Positions 5,785-37,842 of a DNA stretch of 64,000 nucleotides are shown here, in pieces. Under the pieces are notes generated by a model, which saw nothing but the letters and a program-made list of their open reading frames with translations, did not search any database and was not told the DNA's origin. Location of the stretch: NCBI GenBank assembly GCA_029261065.1, contig JAJDCB010000029.1, forward strand, positions 15,448 to 79,447. Direction: 5' to 3'. The stretch comes from Candidatus Omnitrophota bacterium (GTDB lineage Bacteria > Omnitrophota > Gorgyraeia > Zapsychrales > Zapsychraceae). Position 1 is the stretch's first letter. Each line of letters starts with the position of its first letter. Made by a program: the position numbers and the translations under genes.

Positions 5785-6912
5785 ATGTCAAAGAGTACCA
5801 TTGAACAATTAGCAGAATTTGGGCAAAGTGCCTGGTTGGATTATATTAGTCGTTCGTTATTGGAATCTGATAAATTTAAAAATTTGATGGATCAAGGATT
5901 GCGTGGCATGACATCGAATCCTTCTATTTTTCAAAATGCGATTGGTGACTCTTCTGAATATGATCATGAAATTGTTCAATTAAAACAAAGTGGTAAAAGT
6001 TCTTTTGAGATCTATGATGCGTTAAGCATAGAGGATATTCAAAGAGCGGCAGATCAATTTAAAGGTGTGTACGAGGTGACAAATAAATTAGATGGTTATG
6101 TGAGTTTAGAGATAAATCCTTTATTAGCTAATAAAGTGGATGAGCAGATTGCTGAAGGCAAACGTTTATTTGAGAAAGTTGATCGAAAAAATGTCATGAT
6201 TAAAGTGCCTTCCACAGAAGAGGGCTTTGAGGTTATTGAAGAGTTGATTGCCAGTGGCATTAACGTTAATGTCACATTAATTTTTTCTTTAGAACAATAT
6301 ATTAAAACGGTTGAAGCTTACTTAAAAGGTTTAGAACGTTTGTCTCAAACCGATTTTGATTTAAATGATATCCGATCCGTGGCTAGTGTCTTTGTAAGTC
6401 GAGTTGACTCTACTGTTGATAAGCTATTAGATGATAAAATTGCAAAAACAACGGAAGAGACAAAAAAGACAGAGCTTTCTTGTTTAAAGGGAAAGACGGC
6501 CGTTTCTAACTCGCGCATTATTTTTGAAAAATACAAGGAGTTGTTTAACTCTGATCGATTTAAAGAGTTGGCCGCAAAAGGCGCGCAAGTTCAACGTGTC
6601 CTTTGGGGATCAACAAGTACAAAGAACCCTGCTTATAGTGATGTAAAATATGTAACAGAATTAATTGCACAACCTACTGTGAATACCATTCCAGAAAAAA
6701 CTCTTATTGCCTTTCTTGACCATGGTGAGGTAAAAGATGCCTTTACTTGGGATGCTGATAAAGCTTTTGAGACGATAGAGGCTCTTAAGAAAAACGGTAT
6801 TGACTGTGATGAGGTTTGTTCAAAATTATTGAATGATGGTTGTGTGGCCTTTAACCAAGCTTTTGAATCCTTGTTGGATTCTATTGAGAAGAAGGCCGCT
6901 CAATTAGTATAA
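5785..6912 (+). CDS. tal: transaldolase (long form)
   Basis: 375-aa ORF with transaldolase-family N-terminus (AEFGQSAWLDYISRSLL...GMTSNPSIF). Follows tktAB. Confidence 0.75.
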   Translation: MSKSTIEQLAEFGQSAWLDYISRSLLESDKFKNLMDQGLRGMTSNPSIFQNAIGDSSEYDHEIVQLKQSGKSSFEIYDALSIEDIQRAADQFKGVYEVTNKLDGYVSLEINPLLANKVDEQIAEGKRLFEKVDRKNVMIKVPSTEEGFEVIEELIASGINVNVTLIFSLEQYIKTVEAYLKGLERLSQTDFDLNDIRSVASVFVSRVDSTVDKLLDDKIAKTTEETKKTELSCLKGKTAVSNSRIIFEKYKELFNSDRFKELAAKGAQVQRVLWGSTSTKNPAYSDVKYVTELIAQPTVNTIPEKTLIAFLDHGEVKDAFTWDADKAFETIEALKKNGIDCDEVCSKLLNDGCVAFNQAFESLLDSIEKKAAQLV

Positions 6913-14332: not shown

Positions 14333-14914
14333 ATGGGAATATCAAAACATAAACGTTTAACTCTGCTTTATTATCTTGTGACTTCTTTGGCTGTGCTTGT
14401 TTCTGCCTTGACGATTTATATGCATATCACAAAAGATGATGAGGATTATTCCGTTTTTGTTAATGAGGATGTTGGTGTAAGTATTAAATATCCAACAGAT
14501 TGGGATATTCAAGAATATATTCAAAATACAGTTGTTACTTTTATTTCACCTTATGATAGTGAAATTGATACTGTTTTAGAAAATTGTAATGTTGTTGTAG
14601 AACCTATACCACCAAGAACGACGAACTTAGATGAATATACCGAGCTGATTAAAAATCAAATGAATTCTGTGTTTAAGCATTATATTGAAGTAAAAGAATC
14701 TAAAAGTATCCGCTTTGGAGGGCGCCGTGGTCATCGTTATATATATGCAGGCCGGTCACCTGAAGAAGGGGCCCAACAATATCAGTATATTCTTAACTGG
14801 ACCGTTTATGATGGGCTAGGTTATCAATTCACATGTGTTACTATCGAAGAAGATTTTCCTCTTTTCGAGAGAACATTTAATTCCATGCGAAAGTCGTTTA
14901 AAATTTTAAAATAA
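14333..14914 (+). CDS. hypothetical membrane-anchored protein
   Basis: N-terminal signal-anchor helix, then a soluble domain with no recognisable motif. Confidence 0.3.
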   Translation: MGISKHKRLTLLYYLVTSLAVLVSALTIYMHITKDDEDYSVFVNEDVGVSIKYPTDWDIQEYIQNTVVTFISPYDSEIDTVLENCNVVVEPIPPRTTNLDEYTELIKNQMNSVFKHYIEVKESKSIRFGGRRGHRYIYAGRSPEEGAQQYQYILNWTVYDGLGYQFTCVTIEEDFPLFERTFNSMRKSFKILK

Positions 14915-18236: not shown

Positions 18237-18315
18237 TTTTCACCCGGCGTCTTTTTGACGTTGAGGTGTTATCTCTGCCTTTTTAGCGGCGGTGAGTTAT
18301 AAGGCTTTAGTGACC

Positions 18316-20403
18316 ATGTCTGGAATAACCTCTTTTCTACATAGTTTAAATCTTATCAAACAAATTCCAATTTTTGCTAAACTCAATTGGTTTGAACAGC
18401 AAAAGATTGCGCGTAAGTCTGTCATTGTTGAGTATAAAAAGGGAGAGACTGTTCGTCGTGTGGGGGATCCCGCGGATTATTTTTATTGTTTGATAACGGG
18501 CCGTTTACAAGCGTTCACGTTAAACAATGAAAGAATCAAAGAGAATGTAGAATTTATTCATCGGGGCATGCATTTTGGAATTATTTCTGTATTTACGGGA
18601 GAAACACACTCCTTAACATTTGAGGCGATTAATGACTCCATTATTTTAAAAATTGCTAAAGCAGATTTCCATTCTATCCTCAAATCGATTCCTACCCTTG
18701 GATTAGAATTTAGTCAAAGTTTATCACAGCGTGTTCGAAGTCATCGGGAGGGTCAGAAATCTATTTTCGAAAGTACGATTATCTCGATCTACAGCCCTGT
18801 CATAGGAACGGGAAGTTCCACTTATGCGATGAATTTTGCATTAAGTTTACAAATTGAAACCAATAAAAAAGTTATGCTTCTTAATATCCATACGGCTCAG
18901 AATTTGGACGATAAATCAGAGTCTACTAAGGATAAGCCTGTTCCTAAATGGAAGAAGCCACCTATTGAGTTAAAAGACATTGTTGGCGATCATGATAAAA
19001 TTTTTGATAGCATTATTAAAGAAGAGTTAGCCATAGATTTGCTTAATGTGATGTTTGATGCCTCAGACAGCGATTTAAAGAAACAAATTAGTCCTTTGGT
19101 AAGTACTTTGGTTGGAGATTATCATTATGTTATTGTTGATTTGCCGAATGATATGGATGATTTTGTTTTGCAAACGCTGACACAGTCGGATTATGTTCAT
19201 CTGTTATCTTTAGATCGGAAAAAAGATTTAGAGCAAATGCGTTCGGTCATTGATCGTTTAGAATTGACATTTAAAGAAAGGTTTAATGAAGATAGGCTTC
19301 GTGTAATTATCCGAGGGATTCATGATCAGGTTTATTTGTCCTTTGAGGATATTAGTAAAGTTATCGATTTTAAAGTCGATCATGTTATTCCGCATATTCA
19401 TGCTGATCAGCTCAAGGAAGATATTCATTCCTCTAGTGTTACGGTTTATCGAAGTGATGAAAATAGCGAATATAATAAAGTCCTTAGACGTATTGCCCGT
19501 CAAGTTGGCGGCGTTATGGTGGGTGTTGTCTTAGGCGGTGGCGCGGCTTTAGGCATTGCTCATGTGGGAGTTATTCGAGTTTTAGAAGAAGAGAACATCC
19601 CTGTTGATATGGTTGTGGGTAGTAGTATGGGGGCTTTAATTGGAGCGTTATGGGCGACGGGAAAAAATGCGAAAGAATTAGAGGAGATTGCTCGTGAATT
19701 TGAGAAGAAAGGTAATATGTTAAAATTGTTCGACCCGCCATTATTTCCCATCTCAGGACTAATTAAAGGTAATGCGATTAAGCGATGGTTAGCTAAACAT
19801 TTAGGAACTAAAACATTTTATAGTTGCGATATTCCTTTTAAAGTTGTTTCATATGATTTAATACGAAGAGAAGAGTTGATCCTTGAGCGAGGTTCCTTGG
19901 TGGATGCTGTTCGTGAAAGTATTGCCATTCCAGGTGTCCTTAAGCCTGTCTTGACTCAAGATCGTGTGATTATTGATGGGGGCGTGCTCAATCCTTTACC
20001 GACGAATGTTCTTGCTGGTCGTGGCATTAAAAAAATTATTGCTATCAATGTTCTTCAATCTCCAGATGAAGTTTCTCAAGGTCATGACCTCCATCAACGT
20101 CGAGAAGAAGAGAAGTTGTCGCGTTCATTTCTAAAGGCACCATTAAGTTATATATCTCATCGTATTATGAGAACGTTAGCCAAACCTTTCAAACCAAATA
20201 TTTCTGACATTTTAGTACGAACCCTTCAAGCTTCCGAATACGTCATCGCCGAACAGAGCGCCCAACAAGCCGATGTCTTAATCCATCCCGATCTTGTAGG
20301 CATCGACTGGTTCGAACTCTATCGTGTTGATGATCTCATCCGCAAAGGTGAGGAGGCGACCCGCGCTTTAATTCCCGATATTAAAGCTTTAGTGAAGAAA
20401 TAA
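18316..20403 (+). CDS. cNMP-binding domain / degenerate ParA-MinD-like domain / patatin-like phospholipase (NTE-like)
   Basis: N-terminal CAP-family cNMP-binding fold (IPIFAKL...YKKGETVRRVGDPADYFYCLITGRLQ). Middle IISIYSPVIGTGSSTYAMNFALSL resembles the Walker A region of MinD/CpaE but lacks GKT. C-terminal patatin motifs GGGAALGIAHVG, GSSMGA (GXSXG), DGGVLNPLP (DGG). The ORF opens at GTG 18292. Confidence 0.7.
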   Translation: MSGITSFLHSLNLIKQIPIFAKLNWFEQQKIARKSVIVEYKKGETVRRVGDPADYFYCLITGRLQAFTLNNERIKENVEFIHRGMHFGIISVFTGETHSLTFEAINDSIILKIAKADFHSILKSIPTLGLEFSQSLSQRVRSHREGQKSIFESTIISIYSPVIGTGSSTYAMNFALSLQIETNKKVMLLNIHTAQNLDDKSESTKDKPVPKWKKPPIELKDIVGDHDKIFDSIIKEELAIDLLNVMFDASDSDLKKQISPLVSTLVGDYHYVIVDLPNDMDDFVLQTLTQSDYVHLLSLDRKKDLEQMRSVIDRLELTFKERFNEDRLRVIIRGIHDQVYLSFEDISKVIDFKVDHVIPHIHADQLKEDIHSSSVTVYRSDENSEYNKVLRRIARQVGGVMVGVVLGGGAALGIAHVGVIRVLEEENIPVDMVVGSSMGALIGALWATGKNAKELEEIAREFEKKGNMLKLFDPPLFPISGLIKGNAIKRWLAKHLGTKTFYSCDIPFKVVSYDLIRREELILERGSLVDAVRESIAIPGVLKPVLTQDRVIIDGGVLNPLPTNVLAGRGIKKIIAINVLQSPDEVSQGHDLHQRREEEKLSRSFLKAPLSYISHRIMRTLAKPFKPNISDILVRTLQASEYVIAEQSAQQADVLIHPDLVGIDWFELYRVDDLIRKGEEATRALIPDIKALVKK

Positions 20404-20526: not shown

Positions 20527-21156
20527 GTGTTTATTTTGAAAAAATTTCATTTCAAAACGTCAGAAGTTCTCCAAGGTGATTATGAACTCAAGCGTATAAA
20601 TTTGATGATCGTCTTTCAAGTCAATTGTCCGGGATGCTTTTTGTATTCTTTGCCGCTAGTTAATCGTGTGAATGAGAAATATGCAGAGAAGGGGCTTCAG
20701 GTTTTGGGGTTATCAACAGCGTTTGAGGATTTTGAATTTAATACTGTTGATAATACGCGTTTGTTACTTAATGAAGGTGAGGTTGTAGGGGAAACGAAGA
20801 AGGCGTTGAGTCAAATGGGGCATGAAAAGTTTCCCCTTCAAATGGATTTTCCTGTTGCTTTTGATTTATTAGGAAAAGGAAGCGAAATTTTTGATCAAGA
20901 GGATGCCTTGATTGTTTCCGAACTTGTGCCAGATTTTCAAGCTCGAACAGAGGAAGAGCAAAAAAAGATTGTTACAGAAATTGATAAGCATTTAAAAGGG
21001 AGAAAATTAGCCTCTTATAGTTTTACCGTTAACGATATGCGAGGTACACCCTCCTGGTTTCTTTTTCGTGAAGATCTAAGTATTGATGAACTGTGGTTTG
21101 GACATAAAACGGAAGAGGATGTAATGGCGTTATTGGATTCTTGTATTACCCGTTAG
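20527..21156 (+). CDS. thioredoxin-fold protein (CPGC motif)
   Basis: VNCPGCF CXXC motif in a redoxin-like context. GTG start. Confidence 0.35.
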   Translation: MFILKKFHFKTSEVLQGDYELKRINLMIVFQVNCPGCFLYSLPLVNRVNEKYAEKGLQVLGLSTAFEDFEFNTVDNTRLLLNEGEVVGETKKALSQMGHEKFPLQMDFPVAFDLLGKGSEIFDQEDALIVSELVPDFQARTEEEQKKIVTEIDKHLKGRKLASYSFTVNDMRGTPSWFLFREDLSIDELWFGHKTEEDVMALLDSCITR

Positions 21157-21175
21157 GAAAGTTAGGAGAGTCATT

Positions 21176-22576
21176 ATGAAAGTTACATTTTTAGGAGCCA
21201 GTCAGAATGTCACGGGTTCAAGGTTTCTTTTGGAAACAGAATTTTCTCGTATTCTTATAGATTGCGGACTTTTTCAAGAACGAGATTTACGTGATCGTAA
21301 CTGGGAAAAATTTCCTGTCGATCCAAAAAGTATTTCTCATCTCCTCTTAACACATGCTCACATTGATCATTGTGGGTATTTACCACGTTTTGTCAAAGAT
21401 GGGTTTCAAGGAAAAATTATTTGTACGCCTCCCACCGCTGATATAGCCAAAATTAGTTTGATTGATACCGCACACATTCAAGAATCAGATGCCGCTTACA
21501 AAAAGAAACGGCATAAAAAAGAAAAACGTAAGGGACGTCATCCTGAGGTTCCTTTATTTACAGAAGTTGATACATTTCGCGTGTTTTCTCATTTTAGAAC
21601 CCATGATTATGAAGTGACCTTTGATGTGACTAAAGATATTAAAGCCACTTATTATGATTCTGGTCATATTTTAGGTGCCGCATCGATTGAATTAAAGATT
21701 AAAGAGGGGGGCAAAGAAATTATTTGTATTTTTTCTGGAGACATAGGCCGTTGGGATCGTCCGATTCTTAATGACCCTCATCTTTTTAAACAAGCAGATT
21801 ATGTGTTTATGGAAGCCACTTATGGTAATCGTGTTCATGAAGATGCCATCGCTTCTATTGATAAATTGGAGCAAGTCATCAACGCTACTGATAAATCAGG
21901 TGGCAATGTGGTTGTCCCAACATTTTCTATTGGACGAGCGCAGGAGCTTTTGTATGATTTAAACATCCTTGTTAAAGAAAAACGTATTCCTCAATTAATG
22001 ACTTTTGTTGATAGCCCGATGGCAATGAAGATAACAGAGGTCTTTCGTCGTTATTCTCAATATTTTGATGAAGAAGCGCAAGAGTTCCTAGACCAATATG
22101 AATCTTTATTTGATTTTCCTTTATTAAAATTTACAAAGACCTCAGATGAGTCAAAGGCCATTAATCATATTAAGGGAACCGCTGTTATTTTGGCTGGATC
22201 TGGAATGTGTACAGGCGGCCGGGTTAAACATCATTTGCTTAATAATATTTCAAGGCCCGAGAGTACGGTTTTATTTGTTGGTTATCAGGCTCAAGGAACA
22301 TTAGGACGTCAGATTCTGGAACGCCCTGAAAAGGTACGGATTTTGGGTAAAAGGGTGGATGTTTTATCTAAAATTGAAAAAATTAATGGTTTATCTGCTC
22401 ATGCCGATAAAAATGAACTTGCCCAGTGGCTCAAATCTTTCAAGCCACCAGCCAAGAAAGTATTTATCATTCATTCTGAAAAAGAAGCCGCGGAAGGGTT
22501 TGTAAATGCCGTAAAAGAGGAGATTAGCACAGATTTTCATATTCCAAAATATTTAGAAGAAGTTGAAATTGGTTAG
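21176..22576 (+). CDS. MBL-fold beta-CASP ribonuclease (CPSF/RNase J-like)
   Basis: HAHIDHCG metallo-beta-lactamase motif plus beta-CASP-like region. About 465 aa. Confidence 0.65.
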   Translation: MKVTFLGASQNVTGSRFLLETEFSRILIDCGLFQERDLRDRNWEKFPVDPKSISHLLLTHAHIDHCGYLPRFVKDGFQGKIICTPPTADIAKISLIDTAHIQESDAAYKKKRHKKEKRKGRHPEVPLFTEVDTFRVFSHFRTHDYEVTFDVTKDIKATYYDSGHILGAASIELKIKEGGKEIICIFSGDIGRWDRPILNDPHLFKQADYVFMEATYGNRVHEDAIASIDKLEQVINATDKSGGNVVVPTFSIGRAQELLYDLNILVKEKRIPQLMTFVDSPMAMKITEVFRRYSQYFDEEAQEFLDQYESLFDFPLLKFTKTSDESKAINHIKGTAVILAGSGMCTGGRVKHHLLNNISRPESTVLFVGYQAQGTLGRQILERPEKVRILGKRVDVLSKIEKINGLSAHADKNELAQWLKSFKPPAKKVFIIHSEKEAAEGFVNAVKEEISTDFHIPKYLEEVEIG

Positions 22577-22961: not shown

Positions 22962-23615
22962 ATGAATAAAAAAGACAATAAATTTAAATATGTCCTAGTC
23001 GAATTAGCCCATCATTTGCCTTATTCGATTTTTGGGGTAACGGTTGGGATCATTGCTATGGGGGTGTTGACGTTTTTTGCAACGCTGATGAAGGCTGAAG
23101 ATATGCTTCCGCATGCCTCTGAGGAACTCTTTCATGTGTTTCATCCTGCTCACGTTTTATTTAGTGCCGTTGCCACCACAGCGATGTTTTGGAAGCATGA
23201 GAAGAATATGATTAAAGCGATCATTATTGGATTTTTGGGATCCATTACGATATGCGGTATTAGCGATGTTTTTTTTCCATTTGCTGGTGGGCTCATTCTT
23301 GGTCAAGAGATGCATTTGCATGTTTGTATTCTAGAGGAGCCAGGGCTTGTGTTACCATTTGCCGTAGTCGGTGTGATCGCGGGACTTGCTGTGACCAAAA
23401 GTTTTGAGAAATCGACGGAATATTCCCATTCGGCGCATGTTTTTATTAGTAGTGCGGCATCCATTTTATATTTGTTAAGTTACGGTCTTCAAGATTGGAC
23501 TCATGCGGTAGGTGGCGTTTTTCTTGTCACTATCTTTGCTGTTATGATTCCTTGTTGCGCGAGTGATATTGCCCTTCCCATCTGCTGTGCGCACGTCAAT
23601 TGTGATCATGAATAA
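22962..23615 (+). CDS. His/Cys-rich polytopic membrane protein
   Basis: About 6 TM segments, several conserved-looking His (HHLPYS, HVFHPAH, HLHVC). C-terminus CCASDIALPICCAHVNCDHE. Its stop overlaps the hemC-fusion start (ATGAATAA). Confidence 0.35.
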   Translation: MNKKDNKFKYVLVELAHHLPYSIFGVTVGIIAMGVLTFFATLMKAEDMLPHASEELFHVFHPAHVLFSAVATTAMFWKHEKNMIKAIIIGFLGSITICGISDVFFPFAGGLILGQEMHLHVCILEEPGLVLPFAVVGVIAGLAVTKSFEKSTEYSHSAHVFISSAASILYLLSYGLQDWTHAVGGVFLVTIFAVMIPCCASDIALPICCAHVNCDHE

Positions 23616-25656
23616 ACCTCTCAAACAAATCAAGGTCGGTACCAGAGGCAGTCCGCTTGCCCTTGTGCAGATTCAAGAGATTAAAAATCTTATAGACAAT
23701 GAAGGATTTTCTCTTGATTGGCAGTCCATCACTTTTCAAACAGCAGGTGACCAAGATAAAGTAACACCCCTTGTTGATCAACTACCTGATGATTTTTTTA
23801 CCAATACCATTGATCAAGCTCTCCTCGATAAAAAAATTAATTTGGCCATCCATAGTGCCAAAGATCTAGCAGAATGCCTTACTCAGGGATTAAAGATATT
23901 TGCACTTACCGAAAGTAAAGATAATAGCGATTGTTATGTTGGGAAAACAAAAATTAAAGATTTAGCTCAAGGGGCTAAGATTGGAACAAGTAGTCATCTA
24001 AGACAAGAAGCTTTAAAAAATTTAAATCCTAGAATTGAAATTGTGAACATTCGTGGAACCATTCAAGAGCGGTTAGAGTTGCTTGAGCAGGGAGAGGTTG
24101 ATGGGATTATTGTGGCAACCATTGCTTTAAAGCGATTAGGATTAGAGGATCGTATTAGCGAAATCATGCCATGGGAGACCACAGCTCTACAAGGTCAGTT
24201 GGCTGTTGTCGGACGAGCTGACGATCTTGAATTAGAAAAAATATTTTCCACAATCGATGTTCGCGAAGATTATGGAACCGTCACCCTCCTTGGCGCAGGT
24301 CCAGGGGATCCTGAATTGATTACGGTTAAGGCTATTAAAGCATTGGGGCGTTCTGATTGTGTTTTTTATGATTATCTGATTCATCCATCTCTATTAGATT
24401 ACTGTCCGCAAGCTAATAAAACTTATGTGGGAAAAAGAAAAGGCAAGCACTCCATGCCGCAGGCTGAACTTTCACGCCTTCTAAGAGATGCCGCTTTTTT
24501 AGGAAAAAATATCGTCAGGCTTAAAGGAGGCGATCCTTTTATTTTTGGACGAGGCGCTGAGGAGTTTGACTATTTAAGATCTTATCACATTCCAATCGAG
24601 GTGATACCTGGGATTAGTTCAGCTACAGGTATTCCTGCAAGTTTAACGTTGCCTCTGACATCACGTGACGAATCGAATTCCGTGGCTTTCATTAGTGGGC
24701 ATAAAAAAGATGAAGCCCAGGATGCGAATTCTTTATTAGAGATTCCTTGTGTGGATACGATAGTCTTTTTAATGGGATTAACAAAACTAGATATCATCTT
24801 AAAATCACTTCTTAAGGCGAATTGGAAAGAGGAGACATCAATCGTTATCATTTCCAAAGGGACATGTATCGATGAAGATATTCTCATTGGAACACTAAAA
24901 GAGATTAAAAATACATTAGACTCTCATCCCGTTATGCCACCTGCTCTTATTATTGTTGGAAAAAGTGTGGGGCATTGGAAAACATATTATCAACAGAAAC
25001 AAAAAATCCTTTTTACAGGGACGAATCCAGACAAATATCGCTCAAAAGGACAAATCATTCATTGGCCTATGATTGAAATAAAAGAACATGTTTTAGATCA
25101 GAAAGAAGCAGCAAGGATCAAGAATAAAATGGATCAATATCATGTTTTAATACTGACGAGTCGATTTGCCGTTCGTTATTTTTTCAAATGGCTAAAAGAA
25201 CAGAATGTGGGGGTTGATCAGATAAAGAAAATGACGATTTGCGTTATTGGTCAAGTAACGCAGAGAAGTTTAAAAGAATTTAATCTTGATGCTGGTATTT
25301 TACCTTCTGTTGAAACAAGTGAAGGTTTATTTGAGAGCCTCGATGAGGCTATTGATCTTAAGGGAGTAGAAATTTTGTTTCCGCGTTCCTCTTTATCAAA
25401 TCCATATCTAAAAGAAAAGTTAACGAAAAGTGGTGCTTTAGTTGATGAAATGACGATATATGAAAATTTAAAGCCAGAGAAGAAAGATTTGCCTCAAATG
25501 ACGATGGATGCGATTTTTATGACTAGTCCTTCACAAGTAAAGAATTTCTTAGAAGATTATGGTACAATCCCTAAAACTTGGAAAATTTACAGCAAAGGTC
25601 CACACACAGCTAAGTCATTAAAAGAGCAGGGTTATGAAAGTGAGTTATTAAATTGA
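23608..25656 (+). CDS. tri-domain fusion: HemC-like (domains 1-2 only) / uroporphyrinogen-III C-methyltransferase (CobA) / uroporphyrinogen-III synthase (HemD)
   Basis: HemC motifs GTRGSPLALVQ and IGTSSHLRQ, ending near ...AVVGRADDLELE. Then CobA motifs LLGAGPGDPELITVKA and VVRLKGGDPFIFGRG. Then a HemD-like C-terminus (VLILTSRFAVRYF). Confidence 0.7.
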   Translation: MNKPLKQIKVGTRGSPLALVQIQEIKNLIDNEGFSLDWQSITFQTAGDQDKVTPLVDQLPDDFFTNTIDQALLDKKINLAIHSAKDLAECLTQGLKIFALTESKDNSDCYVGKTKIKDLAQGAKIGTSSHLRQEALKNLNPRIEIVNIRGTIQERLELLEQGEVDGIIVATIALKRLGLEDRISEIMPWETTALQGQLAVVGRADDLELEKIFSTIDVREDYGTVTLLGAGPGDPELITVKAIKALGRSDCVFYDYLIHPSLLDYCPQANKTYVGKRKGKHSMPQAELSRLLRDAAFLGKNIVRLKGGDPFIFGRGAEEFDYLRSYHIPIEVIPGISSATGIPASLTLPLTSRDESNSVAFISGHKKDEAQDANSLLEIPCVDTIVFLMGLTKLDIILKSLLKANWKEETSIVIISKGTCIDEDILIGTLKEIKNTLDSHPVMPPALIIVGKSVGHWKTYYQQKQKILFTGTNPDKYRSKGQIIHWPMIEIKEHVLDQKEAARIKNKMDQYHVLILTSRFAVRYFFKWLKEQNVGVDQIKKMTICVIGQVTQRSLKEFNLDAGILPSVETSEGLFESLDEAIDLKGVEILFPRSSLSNPYLKEKLTKSGALVDEMTIYENLKPEKKDLPQMTMDAIFMTSPSQVKNFLEDYGTIPKTWKIYSKGPHTAKSLKEQGYESELLN

Positions 25657-26615
25657 AGCGATTTCGCCGATTAAGACAAAGTGCAGCCATTCGTAATTTG
25701 GTGCAAGAAACGACACTTACAAAGCACGATCTCATTCAACCATTTTTTGTGATTGAAGGAAATAATAAAAGAGAAGAGATTGAATCCATGCCTGGTATAG
25801 CTCGTTATAGTGTTGATCTTCTGCTTAAAGAGGTTGAAGCCTATATAAAACAAGGTGCACAAGCGGGATTATTTTTTGGTCTTCCTAAGAAAAAAAATGA
25901 AACAGCGATGGGGAGTTATGCGAGTAATGGTATCATTCAAAAAGCGGTAAAAGCTTTAAAGAAGGAGTTTCCCGAATTCTGTGTCATTACGGATGTGTGT
26001 TTGTGCGCCTATACAAGTCATGGGCATTGTGGCATTGTGAAAAATAAAAGCGTTGATAATGATAAGACTGTTTCAATTTTAGCCAAAGCAGCTTTATCGC
26101 ATGCAACAGCAGGTGCTGATATTGTTGCTCCCTCAGATATGATGGATTTTCGTGTTAAAGCGATACGTGAGTCTCTTGATAGCAATTCTTATGAAAATGT
26201 TCCTATTATGTCATATGCCGTTAAATACAATTCTGCTTTTTATGGCCCTTTTAGAGAAGCTGCTGATTCTGCTCCTCAATTTGGTGATCGTAAAACCTAT
26301 CAAATGGATCCAGCTAATAGTGATGAAGCCCTCAGAGAAGCCAAGCAAGACCTTAAAGAGGGTGCTGATTTTATTATGGTGAAACCAGCTTTGGCTTATT
26401 TGGATATTGTTGCACGTTTAAAACAAGAATTGGCAGCACCTCTTGTGGCTTACAATGTGAGTGGGGAATATGCCATGGTTAAGGCGGCGGCAATCAAGAA
26501 ATGGGTTGATGAAGAATCTGTTGTATTAGAAAGTTTATTGGCGATGAAAAGGGCTGGGGCCAATATGATTATTTCTTATCATGCCAGTGAGGCGTTGGGG
26601 TGGCTGACCCCTTAG
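25653..26615 (+). CDS. hemB: porphobilinogen synthase (delta-aminolevulinate dehydratase)
   Basis: N-terminus RFRRLRQSAAIRNLVQETTL aligns with the HemB RPRRLR motif. Active-site region with Cys cluster CLCAYTSHGHCG. TTG start overlapping the upstream stop. Confidence 0.85.
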   Translation: MKRFRRLRQSAAIRNLVQETTLTKHDLIQPFFVIEGNNKREEIESMPGIARYSVDLLLKEVEAYIKQGAQAGLFFGLPKKKNETAMGSYASNGIIQKAVKALKKEFPEFCVITDVCLCAYTSHGHCGIVKNKSVDNDKTVSILAKAALSHATAGADIVAPSDMMDFRVKAIRESLDSNSYENVPIMSYAVKYNSAFYGPFREAADSAPQFGDRKTYQMDPANSDEALREAKQDLKEGADFIMVKPALAYLDIVARLKQELAAPLVAYNVSGEYAMVKAAAIKKWVDEESVVLESLLAMKRAGANMIISYHASEALGWLTP

Positions 26616-35433: not shown

Positions 35434-37842
35434 ATGCATAAACGGATACCTAAGTTTCTTTTTGTTTTTTTCTTTCTATCTGGGGCTAGTGCGTTGATGT
35501 TTGAGATCGTCTGGCAACGCTTAATGGTTCTTATATTTGGGTCGAGTGCTCCGGCAACTACGGCTATTCTGACGGCTATTTTCTGTGGTTTTGCCTTAGG
35601 CAGTTGGGTGGGAGGAAAACTTTTACGGAAGATTAAACGTGTTTATCTTTTTTACGCGGCCATTGAGATTTGGATTTGCCTTTGGGGTATTTCGGTTCCG
35701 CATCTTCTTAAAGGGGCTGATGCCCTACAATTGATTATGTTTAAAAGTGCTTCGATGGGGAGTTTGTCATTCTTTTTTGGTCGTTTTGCGTTGGCAATTT
35801 TGGCTGTTCTTCCCGCGACATTTGGGATGGGGGCTACCATCCCAGTCATGAACAAAATTTTAACACAATTTCGATCCATTGGACCTGGAATTGCTTTGGC
35901 TTATGGAGTCAATACGATTGGCTCAGTGGGGGGCTGCCTCTTAACAGGGATCGTATTGATACCAACGTTGGGCATCAACCATTCTTTGATGGTCGCTGGA
36001 AGCATGAACTTAATTGTTGGATTTGGGTTATGGATTTATTCCGTGGCAGGCCAAGAACGCGTTCTGGCTATTGCTAGCGAGGATAAGATTTCTGAGCAGA
36101 AAACACAGCCTAAGCTTAAATCTTCTCTTACATCGCAGTTAATGTTTTTTTATTTTATTTCTGGCTTTTTAGCCCTTGGTTACGAAATTGTTTGGTTTCG
36201 TTTGATGGGGATGTTGACCACAAACTCTATGATCACCTTTACCGTAGGTCTCGCGGTTTACCTTTTGGGTTTTTCTTCCGGAAGCCTTCTTCTTTATCCA
36301 GCGCTTTCAAAACGTTTATCAGCAGGGTGGATTTTTTTCTATTCCAATGTTGGTGCTGGTCTGATGACGTTATGTTTGATTCCTCTCTATTATTATTTTT
36401 CTGATATTAACCATTTACGCTTTTTAGATCAATGGTTTGATGCGTGGCAGTTAACACCTTATTTACGTATAGTCCTAGAGGAAGGTTTTTTTGCCTTCAT
36501 CATTATGTTGATTCCACCTGTTTTTATGGGGCTCGCCTATCCATCCATTTGTGCCTTAACGATTTCTGATGTAAGTCAAACACCCAATCGAAGTGGTTGG
36601 ATTTATTCTCTTGGCACCTTTGGCGCGGCTTGCGGTGCGATTTTGGTGGGGTTAGGTATTGTGCCGATTTTTGACATTATGATGAGTTTAGCTCTTTTGT
36701 GTTTAATGAGTTTTATATTATCTTTTGCCACAATGATGAGTATTGATTCTGATTTTCGAAAAGTAAAAGGGTCTTTATCAACAGTTCTGATTTTTTTGAT
36801 CATCATCGCATTAAGTTACGGTTTTTTAGCTCATCCCATTATTAGGGGAGGAGGTCGTTTGACTAAGAGCGGGGATCACTGGTTATTTAAAGATCCTCAT
36901 CCGGAATTCCCTAACGCTAAACGAAGTTTGCATCGCTATAAATCGGGTGGTGTTGGAAATGTTAGTGTGGATCAATTTGAAACGAGAAAAGAAACATTTC
37001 GACGGTTGTTAATAGACGGACAGAGAGTTGCTTCAACAAGGTTTGGGCCAAAGGTCGATGCCAAGATGCTCGCGCATGTTCCGTTAGCCATTCATCCCCA
37101 ACCAGAACGTGCTTTAAGTGTGGGTTTTGGTAGTGGAGGTACATCTTGGTCGATGACACGTTACGGCATTGAAGTGGATTGTGCAGAGATCGAACCAGAG
37201 GTTGTCCGTTCCGCTCATCTATTTTCTGATCAAAATTATAATATTTTAGAGGAGCCTAACTACCGTGTTATCATGAATGATGTTCGTAATTATCTTCATT
37301 TAACGGAGCAACGTTATGATGTCGTTTCAACGGATGTCACAAATTTGCAGTATAAACAAAATGGGAGTTTATATACTAGAGAATACTTTCAATTAATAAA
37401 AGATCATTTGACTAGTGATGGTGTGGCTGCCGTATGGATGCCGATGCTTTGGAGTAATGTTTATGATTTTCAAATATTACTTAAGACCTTTCAAACAGTC
37501 TTTCCACATAGTTCTGTTTGGTATTTTGACAGTTATTATGTGATCCTCATTGGCACCCCTGAGCCATTAGAAGTTGATGAAAAACGTTTAGCCTCTCTTT
37601 TCCGTGATCCTAAAATTGCTGCTGATCTAAAGGAAATCAATGTTACAACTCCTGAGCAATTTCTTGAATTTTTGATTATGGATGAAGAGGGGGTGAGTAA
37701 AATTTCAGAAGGGATGCCGATACATACCGATGATTATCCCATTTTAGAATTTAGAAATATTCCTCATCTCTATTATGGACAAATGGTGACACTTAAGGAT
37801 ATTGCCCCTTTTCTCATCGATTCTACATCAATTGCGGAATAA
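35434..37842 (+). CDS. fused polytopic membrane domain / spermidine-synthase-like aminopropyltransferase
   Basis: About 14 N-terminal TM helices. C-terminal SpeE-like fold (ALSVGFGSGGTSWSM, VIMNDVRNYL, YDVVSTDV). Confidence 0.55.
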   Translation: MHKRIPKFLFVFFFLSGASALMFEIVWQRLMVLIFGSSAPATTAILTAIFCGFALGSWVGGKLLRKIKRVYLFYAAIEIWICLWGISVPHLLKGADALQLIMFKSASMGSLSFFFGRFALAILAVLPATFGMGATIPVMNKILTQFRSIGPGIALAYGVNTIGSVGGCLLTGIVLIPTLGINHSLMVAGSMNLIVGFGLWIYSVAGQERVLAIASEDKISEQKTQPKLKSSLTSQLMFFYFISGFLALGYEIVWFRLMGMLTTNSMITFTVGLAVYLLGFSSGSLLLYPALSKRLSAGWIFFYSNVGAGLMTLCLIPLYYYFSDINHLRFLDQWFDAWQLTPYLRIVLEEGFFAFIIMLIPPVFMGLAYPSICALTISDVSQTPNRSGWIYSLGTFGAACGAILVGLGIVPIFDIMMSLALLCLMSFILSFATMMSIDSDFRKVKGSLSTVLIFLIIIALSYGFLAHPIIRGGGRLTKSGDHWLFKDPHPEFPNAKRSLHRYKSGGVGNVSVDQFETRKETFRRLLIDGQRVASTRFGPKVDAKMLAHVPLAIHPQPERALSVGFGSGGTSWSMTRYGIEVDCAEIEPEVVRSAHLFSDQNYNILEEPNYRVIMNDVRNYLHLTEQRYDVVSTDVTNLQYKQNGSLYTREYFQLIKDHLTSDGVAAVWMPMLWSNVYDFQILLKTFQTVFPHSSVWYFDSYYVILIGTPEPLEVDEKRLASLFRDPKIAADLKEINVTTPEQFLEFLIMDEEGVSKISEGMPIHTDDYPILEFRNIPHLYYGQMVTLKDIAPFLIDSTSIAE

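Follow-up and report, generated by a model that had tools for sequence, protein, structure and literature searches.

Every tetrapyrrole (haem, chlorophyll, sirohaem, B12, and F430) is made via hydroxymethylbilane (HMB), and HMB synthase (HMBS; HemC) is taught as making and keeping its own Cys-linked dipyrromethane primer. To our knowledge, this cofactor sits on a cysteine in every characterized HMBS. Bifunctional CobA-HemD proteins, in turn, have been described in Clostridium josui, Desulfovibrio vulgaris, and Lactobacillus reuteri. Here we analyze a HemC-CobA-HemD fusion encoded in a 64-kb stretch of contig JAJDCB010000029.1 from Candidatus Omnitrophota (hereafter the window, meaning the whole stretch, to which all coordinates refer), in which the HemC part comprises only the first two of the three HemC domains. 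At ∼24 kDa this part is smaller than the 34–44 kDa given for all purified HmbS, which is described as a monomer that links the first porphobilinogen (PBG) to a “conserved cysteine residue” (haem biosynthesis review, August 2026). A full-text literature search for a HemC without domain 3 returned nothing; the subscription literature lay outside this search, so a prior mention is possible.

The fusion occupies a single uninterrupted frame (23563–25656, plus strand), and the ATG at 23608, from which its residues are numbered, gives 682 amino acids plus a stop. This start agrees with the N termini of homologs and, together with the stop of the preceding gene, forms an 8-nt overlap, ATGAATAA. The same protein is present at NCBI (P0121) on a 92-kb contig. 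Pfam places three domains along the chain, PF01379 (Porphobil_deam) at residues 8–210 (E 4e-50), PF00590 (TP_methylase) at residues 224–433 (E 7e-47), and PF02602 (HEM4) at residues 481–677 (E 2.5e-37; 128.7 bits versus a gathering cut-off of 27.5). The parts of the fusion are as follows.

23608–25656, plus strand: HemC(domains 1-2)-CobA-HemD trifunctional protein, one open reading frame (ORF), assigned from Pfam, NCBIfam, and motifs
23608–24273, plus strand: HemC module, residues 1–222, corresponding approximately to Escherichia coli HemC residues 3–220, domains 1 and 2 only
23746–23802, plus strand: active-site lid region GDQDKVTPLVDQLPDDFFT, residues 47–65, in which an acidic D-D-F-F-T replaces GGKGLF
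23851–23865, plus strand: HSAKD, residues 82–86, with the catalytic Asp (E. coli D84) and K83 and S81, assigned by conservation
23986–24006, plus strand: TSSHLRQ, residues 127–133, retaining T127, S128, S129, and R132, with E. coli R131 replaced by Leu
24049–24072, plus strand: IRGTIQER, residues 148–155, with the equivalents of R149 and R155, invariant in all groups
24247–24315, plus strand: HemC/CobA junction, STIDVREDY followed by GTVTLLGAGPGDPE, without a linker and without Cys
24274–24987, plus strand: CobA, the uroporphyrinogen-III C-methyltransferase (SUMT), residues 223–460, assigned from TIGR01469, PF00590, and a structure match
25000–25653, plus strand: HemD, the uroporphyrinogen-III synthase, residues 465–682, assigned from PF02602

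Domain 3 and its dipyrromethane-binding cysteine have been lost from the HemC part. Pfam finds no match to the HemC C-terminal domain (PF03900) in the fusion, TIGR00212 (hemC) covers profile positions 1–220 of 293 only, and HemC sequences from the PDB align over no more than E. coli residues 6–223. We built an AlphaFold model of the fusion with an alignment of 60 orthologs (mean predicted local distance difference test [pLDDT] score 87.9 and predicted TM-score [pTM] 0.72, with pLDDT above 90 in the HemC part). Its HemC part superposes on 4htg, 4mlq, and 5h6o over ∼220–225 columns at 1.7–2.5 Å (Foldseek), and a target-normalized TM-score of ∼0.65 against HemC crystal structures corresponds to two of the three domains. 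The CobA strand starts where canonical HemC has the hinge to domain 3, creating a junction (IDVREDY followed by GTVTLLGAGPGD) with an effectively zero-length linker that contains no Cys. D217, R219, G223, and the GAGPG motif around this junction are invariant in 60 fusions, and stand-alone short HemCs terminate at the same ID(V/S)R position as the HemC part of the fusion.

Neither a frameshift nor a displaced cysteine accounts for this loss. A frameshift hiding domain 3 is ruled out because both other frames over the junction are full of stops and because a search of all six translated frames of the 64 kb with a domain-3 hidden Markov model (HMM), derived from 40 full-length HemCs, gave no match (best E 2.4); in the same six frames, this ORF is the sole match to domains 1-2. 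A cofactor cysteine in the linker or elsewhere is ruled out by the absence of any conserved Cys column and by the existence of Cys-free members. When 120 orthologous fusions are aligned, no Cys column is conserved in the HemC part; 3 of them have no Cys in this part at all, and some have one Cys in the entire protein; the only frequent Cys, C251, lies in the CobA module (105/120). Likewise, no Cys is conserved among 244 short HemC modules, 14 of which are entirely Cys-free, and the wholly Cys-free stand-alone members include P0014, P0015, P0016, P0022, P0027, P0061, and P0065. No conserved Cys attachment point is therefore available. The column of E. coli C242, a feature of HMBS membership, is absent from the fusion. 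The sequence-only reading had reported the missing domain 3 and cysteine, and had named a frameshift, a Cys in the linker, and alignment to HemC structures as the points to examine; all three examinations agree with it.

The remaining two modules are conventional in their assignment. The CobA module passes TIGR01469 (245.4 bits versus a cut-off of 185, residues 223–454), carries the GAGPGD and LKGGDP S-adenosylmethionine-binding motifs, and in the AlphaFold model matches 1va0, 1s4d, and 2ybo over ∼240 columns at 2.2–3 Å. The HemD module lies below the cut-off of every NCBIfam HemD equivalog (best NF004593, 110.9 bits versus 275), which says little about function because HemD families are very divergent. 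The fusion is a genuine, intact trifunctional (HemC-CobA-HemD) protein of Candidatus Omnitrophota. One polypeptide from 23608 to 25656 with a complete CobA followed by a HemD domain is also what the sequence-only reading had described, and the motifs that it quoted are in place (GTRGSPLALVQ at residues 11–21, TSSHLRQ at 127–133, and LLGAGPGDPEL from residue 227). The top Foldseek match, CysG (1PJQ), has a SUMT half homologous to that of the fusion, and NF007922 is matched at profile positions 205–449 only (253.9 bits versus a cut-off of 400). CysG, however, has a dehydrogenase/ferrochelatase N-domain that is absent from the fusion and itself contains neither HemC nor HemD. Closer in layout are the bifunctional CobA-HemD proteins encoded beside a short hemC in loci L001, L028, L030, L045, and L052, which have the same order and size (∼460 amino acids) as residues 223–682; relative to these, the fusion has an in-frame N-terminal HemC with no linker.

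We compared the catalytic cleft of 244 short-type HemC modules from several phyla with that of 55 long-type sequences, using E. coli numbering. S81, K83, and the catalytic D84 of the HSAKD motif are present in 100% of both sets. Together with these residues, R11, Q19, D46, F62, H80, S128, R132, R149, G150, R155, R176, Q198, and G199 are 99–100% conserved among the short modules, followed by S13, D106, and S129 at 97–99% and T127 at 90%. S128 is found in 100% of short forms versus 40% of long forms. The window protein holds D84 along with R11, S13, Q19, K83, T127, S129, R132, R149, R155, and R176, and R131 alone differs, being Leu. This position is Leu, Ile, or Val in 12/12 of the closest fusion-clade sequences versus Arg or Lys in 60/62 stand-alone short forms; over all 244 short modules it is Leu in 99, Arg in 91, Ile in 21, and Val in 11. 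Mutagenesis in the Jordan laboratory is said to have found R131 essential for cofactor assembly in E. coli HMBS, and we take this residue to contact the Cys-proximal ring of the cofactor. Because of that presumed role in assembly, its loss in the fusion clade fits an empty “cofactor” site.

Short forms also share a set of derived characters. I48 is replaced by Asp (92%), G60 by Asp (85%), L61 by Phe (95%), and Y22 by Glu (95%; n = 244 for each), whereas the long forms have Ile, Gly, and Leu at positions 48, 60, and 61. D50 of the window protein occupies the E. coli I48 position and is the near-invariant new Asp of the short forms. Further changes are N151 to Thr, T154 to Glu, G173 to Ala, G197 to Leu, and A200 to Gln; R101 and R105, otherwise invariant, have been lost, and three residues are deleted at 191–193. 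In comparison with canonical HMBS (E. coli 1PDA, Bacillus megaterium 4MLQ, human 3ECR; TIGR00212; PF01379 plus PF03900), the fold of domains 1-2 is common to the fusion at ∼27–31% identity in structural alignments, as are Asp84, nearly all residues that bind the pyrrole acetates and propionates, and the operon position. In contrast, domain 3 and Cys242 are present in the canonical enzyme only, the Gly/Lys-rich GGKGLF lid becomes the acidic D-D-F-F-T, and the two arginines, the three-residue segment, and, in the clade of the fusion, R131 differ as described. Since both domain 3 and the cofactor Cys are missing, the protein is best described as one that works like an HMBS and belongs to a two-domain HemC subfamily, rather than as a canonical HMBS.

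Contrary to what the sequence-only reading had implied, the loss of domain 3 is not peculiar to this fusion or its lineage and instead defines a family that spans several phyla. A whole-protein search recovers at least 119 further clusters (90% identity level) of ∼680 amino acids with the same three Pfam domains, 49–56% identity to the window protein, and no PF03900 in any; those with a taxon name are all from Candidatus Omnitrophota/Omnitrophica. A search with the HemC part alone returns three tiers, namely HemC+CobA fusions, then many stand-alone PF01379-only proteins of 205–240 amino acids, the named ones from Omnitrophota and Chlamydiota metagenome-assembled genomes (MAGs), and finally full-length PF01379+PF03900 proteins at 41% identity or less. 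We also scanned one genome per GTDB species for the pattern [AS][IV]HSAKDLP and typed the domains of the ORFs. Two-domain HemCs occur in Omnitrophota, in Chlamydiota (including Chlamydiaceae and Rhabdochlamydia MAGs), in Kiritimatiellae, Lentisphaerae, and one Verrucomicrobiota MAG, in Bacteroidales (Prevotella and Paludibacter), and in a Spirochaetes MAG, Termititenax, and WS1.

Searched exhaustively with HMMER, 1.84 billion representative proteins (50% identity clusters) yielded 239 clusters at E ≤ 1e-30, and domain 3 is absent from all of the best 150. Among these 150, the architecture is HemC-CobA-HemD in 53, HemC-HemD in 48, HemC alone in 25, an N-terminal extension before a C-terminal HemC in 15, and HemC-CobA in 9, so that the CobA-HemD fusion is one of at least five architectures of two-domain HemC. 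A single neighbor-joining bipartition parts 144/144 short from 55/55 long forms. Because the scan pattern biases the sampling of long forms, a single clade of short forms is provisional; with that reservation, the two-domain HemCs appear to form a large family, one clade in our sample, across several phyla. The extended members vary. By eye, a sequence resembling HemA (glutamyl-tRNA reductase) is fused ahead of HemC in loci L022 and L030 (match ∼6001–6650 in each locus), L024 has the same length and layout (match ∼6001–6650), and L065 has an N-terminal extension of ∼290 residues followed by HemC and HemD.

Existing annotation hides this family. Domains 1-2 suffice for every short form tested to exceed the TIGR00212 cut-off, and such proteins are thus routinely annotated as HMBS; the window module itself scores 180.7 bits against an equivalog cut-off of 164. 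A second model, NF002202/PRK01066, is a short “hydroxymethylbilane synthase” equivalog of 241 positions, presumably built on Chlamydiaceae HemC, with the same two-domain architecture, derived signature, and clade as the HemC of the fusion. The model covers short proteins over their full length. The window module matches it at positions 19–235, and with 177.1 bits against a cut-off of 251 it is not a member; environmental chlamydial sequences also fall slightly below this cut-off, at 219–239 bits. Whereas the NF002202 type is free-standing, the window HemC is fused to CobA-HemD and has R131 replaced.

Genomic context places the short hemC in the position of hemC. In the window, the fusion is followed directly by two further tetrapyrrole genes, both of which the sequence-only reading had identified.

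25653–26615, plus strand: hemB (porphobilinogen synthase), its start overlapping the fusion stop; PF00490 E 5e-147, NF006762
26600–27928, plus strand: hemL (glutamate-1-semialdehyde 2,1-aminomutase), overlapping the end of hemB; TIGR00713

Both genes pass their NCBIfam cut-offs (494 bits versus 297 for hemB and 530.8 versus 527.3 for hemL). HemB carries DVCLCAYTSHGHCG, which we take to be the Cys-rich motif of Zn-dependent porphobilinogen synthases. Among 41 ORFs of at least 120 amino acids scanned between 9.1 and 63.1 kb, there is no tetrapyrrole gene besides the fusion, hemB, and hemL (no hemA, sirC/sirB, ahb, hemE, or cbi). The Cys-free P0014, seen on 11 contigs from three sources, lies in an operon hemA-hemC(short)-cobA/hemD-hemB-hemL that adjoins a sirohaem-type sulfite reductase gene. 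Across 80 genome loci, wherever sequence downstream of a short hemC is available, hemD or cobA-hemD is fused to it or soon follows (within ∼2 kb, mostly overlapping), and some short hemCs are fused to hemA. A separate domain 3 was not found near any short hemC, even at E ≤ 1, as the HMM matches only full-length HemC ORFs in 86 loci (0.9 Mb), and none of the loci recovered from Planctomycetes-Verrucomicrobia-Chlamydiae (PVC) phyla has a long-form hemC.

The triple fusion occurs in Omnitrophota, Bacteroidales, and Kiritimatiellae, and the chlamydial loci examined encode HemC and HemD without CobA; on one chlamydia-like contig, a short hemC-hemD has hemF and a hemY-like oxidase gene close by. CobA methylates uroporphyrinogen III to precorrin-2, and the triple fusion would therefore direct all flux into sirohaem, B12, or sirohaem-dependent haem. 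The distribution of architectures is thus suggestive of a match to pathway branch (sirohaem/B12 versus haem). Because the order along the polypeptide is the gene order of relatives, in which a short hemC overlaps or abuts cobA-hemD (L001, L028, L030, L045, and L052), the most likely origin of the triple fusion is that the stop codon separating these adjacent genes was lost.

Considered together, the conserved cleft and the operon position are consistent with a model in which the two-domain HemC is probably a functional HMBS that operates with no cofactor linked to Cys and supplies the HemD and CobA fused to it. A role confined to binding or channeling needs no invariant Asp84, and we infer that these organisms use the module as their HMBS. 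More tentatively, and falling short of an even chance in our estimation, the two-domain HemCs may be cofactor-independent HMBSs with no covalent enzyme-substrate link, in which the carboxylates hold the chain, the acidic lid holds the aminomethyl head, and the product goes straight to a fused or adjacent HemD.

Under such a mechanism, four PBG would be deaminated and condensed head-to-tail in the conserved Asp/Arg-lined cleft with no thioether-anchored primer, the growing chain most likely being held non-covalently through its carboxylates. For the start, we prefer a primer-free route. The first PBG would keep its aminomethyl group and act as acceptor, three more would be deaminated at Asp84 and added to the free α-position, and the resulting aminomethylbilane would be deaminated last to HMB or its azafulvene. 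The acidic lid (D-D-F-F-T, with the new Asp at E. coli 48) could hold the cationic aminomethyl head. Battersby et al., in 1978, are said to have found enzymic conversion of a synthetic head-to-tail aminomethylbilane into uroporphyrinogen III. Other starts can be envisaged, first a tightly but non-covalently bound dipyrrole, and next a labile link, as an ester or ether, to a nucleophile specific to the family, either the lid Asp residues or Ser128. The bilane would then pass within the polypeptide to HemD, giving uroporphyrinogen III, and on to CobA, giving precorrin-2; coupling to HemD may also supply the chain-length control that otherwise comes from domain 3. Since HMB cyclizes spontaneously to uroporphyrinogen I within minutes (haem biosynthesis review, August 2026), fusion or tight coupling to HemD has an obvious channeling advantage.

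Several points weigh against this model. We know of no precedent for a cofactor-free mechanism, and in canonical HMBS mutation of the cofactor Cys or loss of the cofactor inactivates the enzyme. HMBS activity of the family is read from residue conservation and operon context only. The replacement of R131 by Leu, Ile, or Val in the closest fusion clade, which fits the absence of a cofactor, could also reflect an activity that is lower or changed. The search for a second full-length hemC or a stand-alone domain 3 covered only the 64-kb window and flanks of up to 10 kb around relatives, and the long forms in the tree are the biased sample noted above, which keeps the single clade provisional.

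Several other explanations would also account for a HemC without domain 3. It is possible, if unlikely, that a covalent dipyrromethane is still used, attached in trans (through a separate domain-3-like protein or the Cys of a partner or subunit) or through a stable link to a non-Cys nucleophile of the module itself. Most residues that contact the cofactor are kept (K83, D84, T127, S129, R132, R149, and R155), and family-specific nucleophiles do exist in Ser128 and in the new Asp residues at E. coli 48 and 60. R131, the presumed contact of the Cys-proximal ring, is nonetheless dispensable in the fusion clade, no Cys is invariant in 120 fusions, and neither the window nor 0.9 Mb of related loci has a gene for a separate domain 3. 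The window does offer one candidate partner, the Cys/His-rich membrane protein translationally coupled upstream of the fusion (described below). As a general trans donor of a Cys it is rejected, given that it is found beside the fusion in a subclade only (L007 and L009), is missing from the operon of the Cys-free P0014 and from the majority of related loci, and elsewhere accompanies hypCDE.

We consider it quite unlikely that the N-terminal module is a non-catalytic domain that binds or channels PBG or bilane, with a canonical three-domain HemC elsewhere in the genome supplying HMBS. Such a role would agree with the missing domain 3 and cofactor Cys and with the loss of R131 in the fusion clade, and the 64 kb of genome inspected leave room for it, as hemA and later pathway genes are not among the scanned ORFs and other hem genes must lie outside the window. 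Binding alone, however, has no need of Asp84 and an Arg/Ser/Lys/Gln set conserved over 244 sequences across phyla. The short hemC moreover takes the place of hemC in hemA-C-D-B-L operons that are otherwise complete and have no second hemC close by, no PVC-phylum locus recovered has a long form, and Chlamydia genomes are not known to annotate any hemC but the short one. The sequence-only reading had left a choice between a binding or channeling module and an unusual PBG deaminase; the conserved catalytic set and the operon slot favor the latter and disfavor the former.

Very unlikely, in our view, is a related but different chemistry, with obligatory co-catalysis by HemD and no free HMB, or with another chain length, such that the module is not strictly an HMBS. 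The near-constant fusion or adjacency to HemD (in the 80 loci and the best 150 clusters), the remodeled acidic lid, and the altered residues flanking Q198-G199 would suit this explanation, as would the absence, without domain 3, of an obvious ruler to stop the chain at four units. Adjacency to hemD, however, does not discriminate, since canonical hemC usually adjoins hemD too, and in 25 of the best 150 representative clusters the module stands alone. HemD and CobA downstream are ordinary and need an ordinary bilane and uroporphyrinogen III. Finally, the source is a MAG, so that a sequencing frameshift, misassembly, or decaying pseudogene might be suspected of having removed domain 3, but the comparative data refute this negligible prospect, with the same linker-free junction shared by the 120 aligned fusions from NCBI, JGI, ENA, and Logan, closed alternative frames, no trace of domain 3 in any frame, and a confident fold prediction.

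If two-domain HemCs are indeed cofactor-independent, the dipyrromethane cofactor would not be a universal requirement of tetrapyrrole biosynthesis, and the enzyme of Chlamydiae, Omnitrophota, Kiritimatiellae/Lentisphaerae, and many B12-making Bacteroidales would be mechanistically distinct. The family would then represent a second mechanistic solution for a universal step, or would indicate that this step can do without the covalent primer. It takes in the HemC of B12-producing gut Bacteroidales and the Chlamydia-type HemC, which differs from the human enzyme and could be a selective drug target, and the compact HemC-CobA-HemD fusion could provide a ready-made PBG-to-precorrin-2 cassette for metabolic engineering. 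The sequences are already in databases and automatically annotated, either as HMBS from domains 1-2 alone or, for the fusions, only as “uroporphyrinogen-III C-methyltransferase”; the mechanistic anomaly that this conceals appears not to have been addressed.

The gene directly upstream of the fusion (22962–23615, plus strand) encodes a multi-pass membrane protein of 217 amino acids whose stop provides the 8-nt overlap with the fusion start. It has no Pfam or NCBIfam match, and its family is better conserved than the fusion, with ∼58–75% identity among the 120 clusters listed, mostly from Omnitrophota where named. H18, H58, H61, H64, C98, H120, H156, H159, C198, C199, and C209 are invariant, and C122 is present in 117/120. 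In L007 and L009 its gene is likewise the nearest one upstream of the fusion; elsewhere it precedes hypC-hypD-hypE, and many homologs are found on contigs equal in size to fusion-carrying contigs. The protein looks like a member of an uncharacterized family of metal-handling membrane proteins.

The surrounding genes are strongly co-oriented, with 34/34 ORFs of at least 120 amino acids between 272 and 39401 on the plus strand. A syntenic relative, L005, has the order cyclic-nucleotide-binding patatin gene, fusion, hemB, hemL, and DUF3568, the patatin gene being the immediate upstream neighbor of the fusion. The corresponding gene in the window (18292–20403, plus strand) encodes 703 amino acids comprising a cyclic-nucleotide-binding domain, an AAA_31/ParA-like P-loop region, and a patatin phospholipase domain. 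Relative to L005, three genes are inserted between it and the fusion, from the 20527–22576 region (plus strand) onward, encoding a 209-amino acid CPGC-motif protein with no family match, a β-CASP/metallo-β-lactamase RNase-like protein (21176–22576), and the 217-amino acid membrane protein. Further upstream, a PsbP-like protein (14333–14914, plus strand; PF01789/PF18933) is encoded in this presumably non-photosynthetic Omnitrophota genome, between fatty-acid β-oxidation genes and a tRNA U5-methyltransferase-like gene, a position conserved in L005. Downstream of hemL, an 802-amino acid protein (35434–37842, plus strand) has a spermine/spermidine-synthase domain at residues 544–695 only, preceded by a large N-terminal part with no Pfam match.

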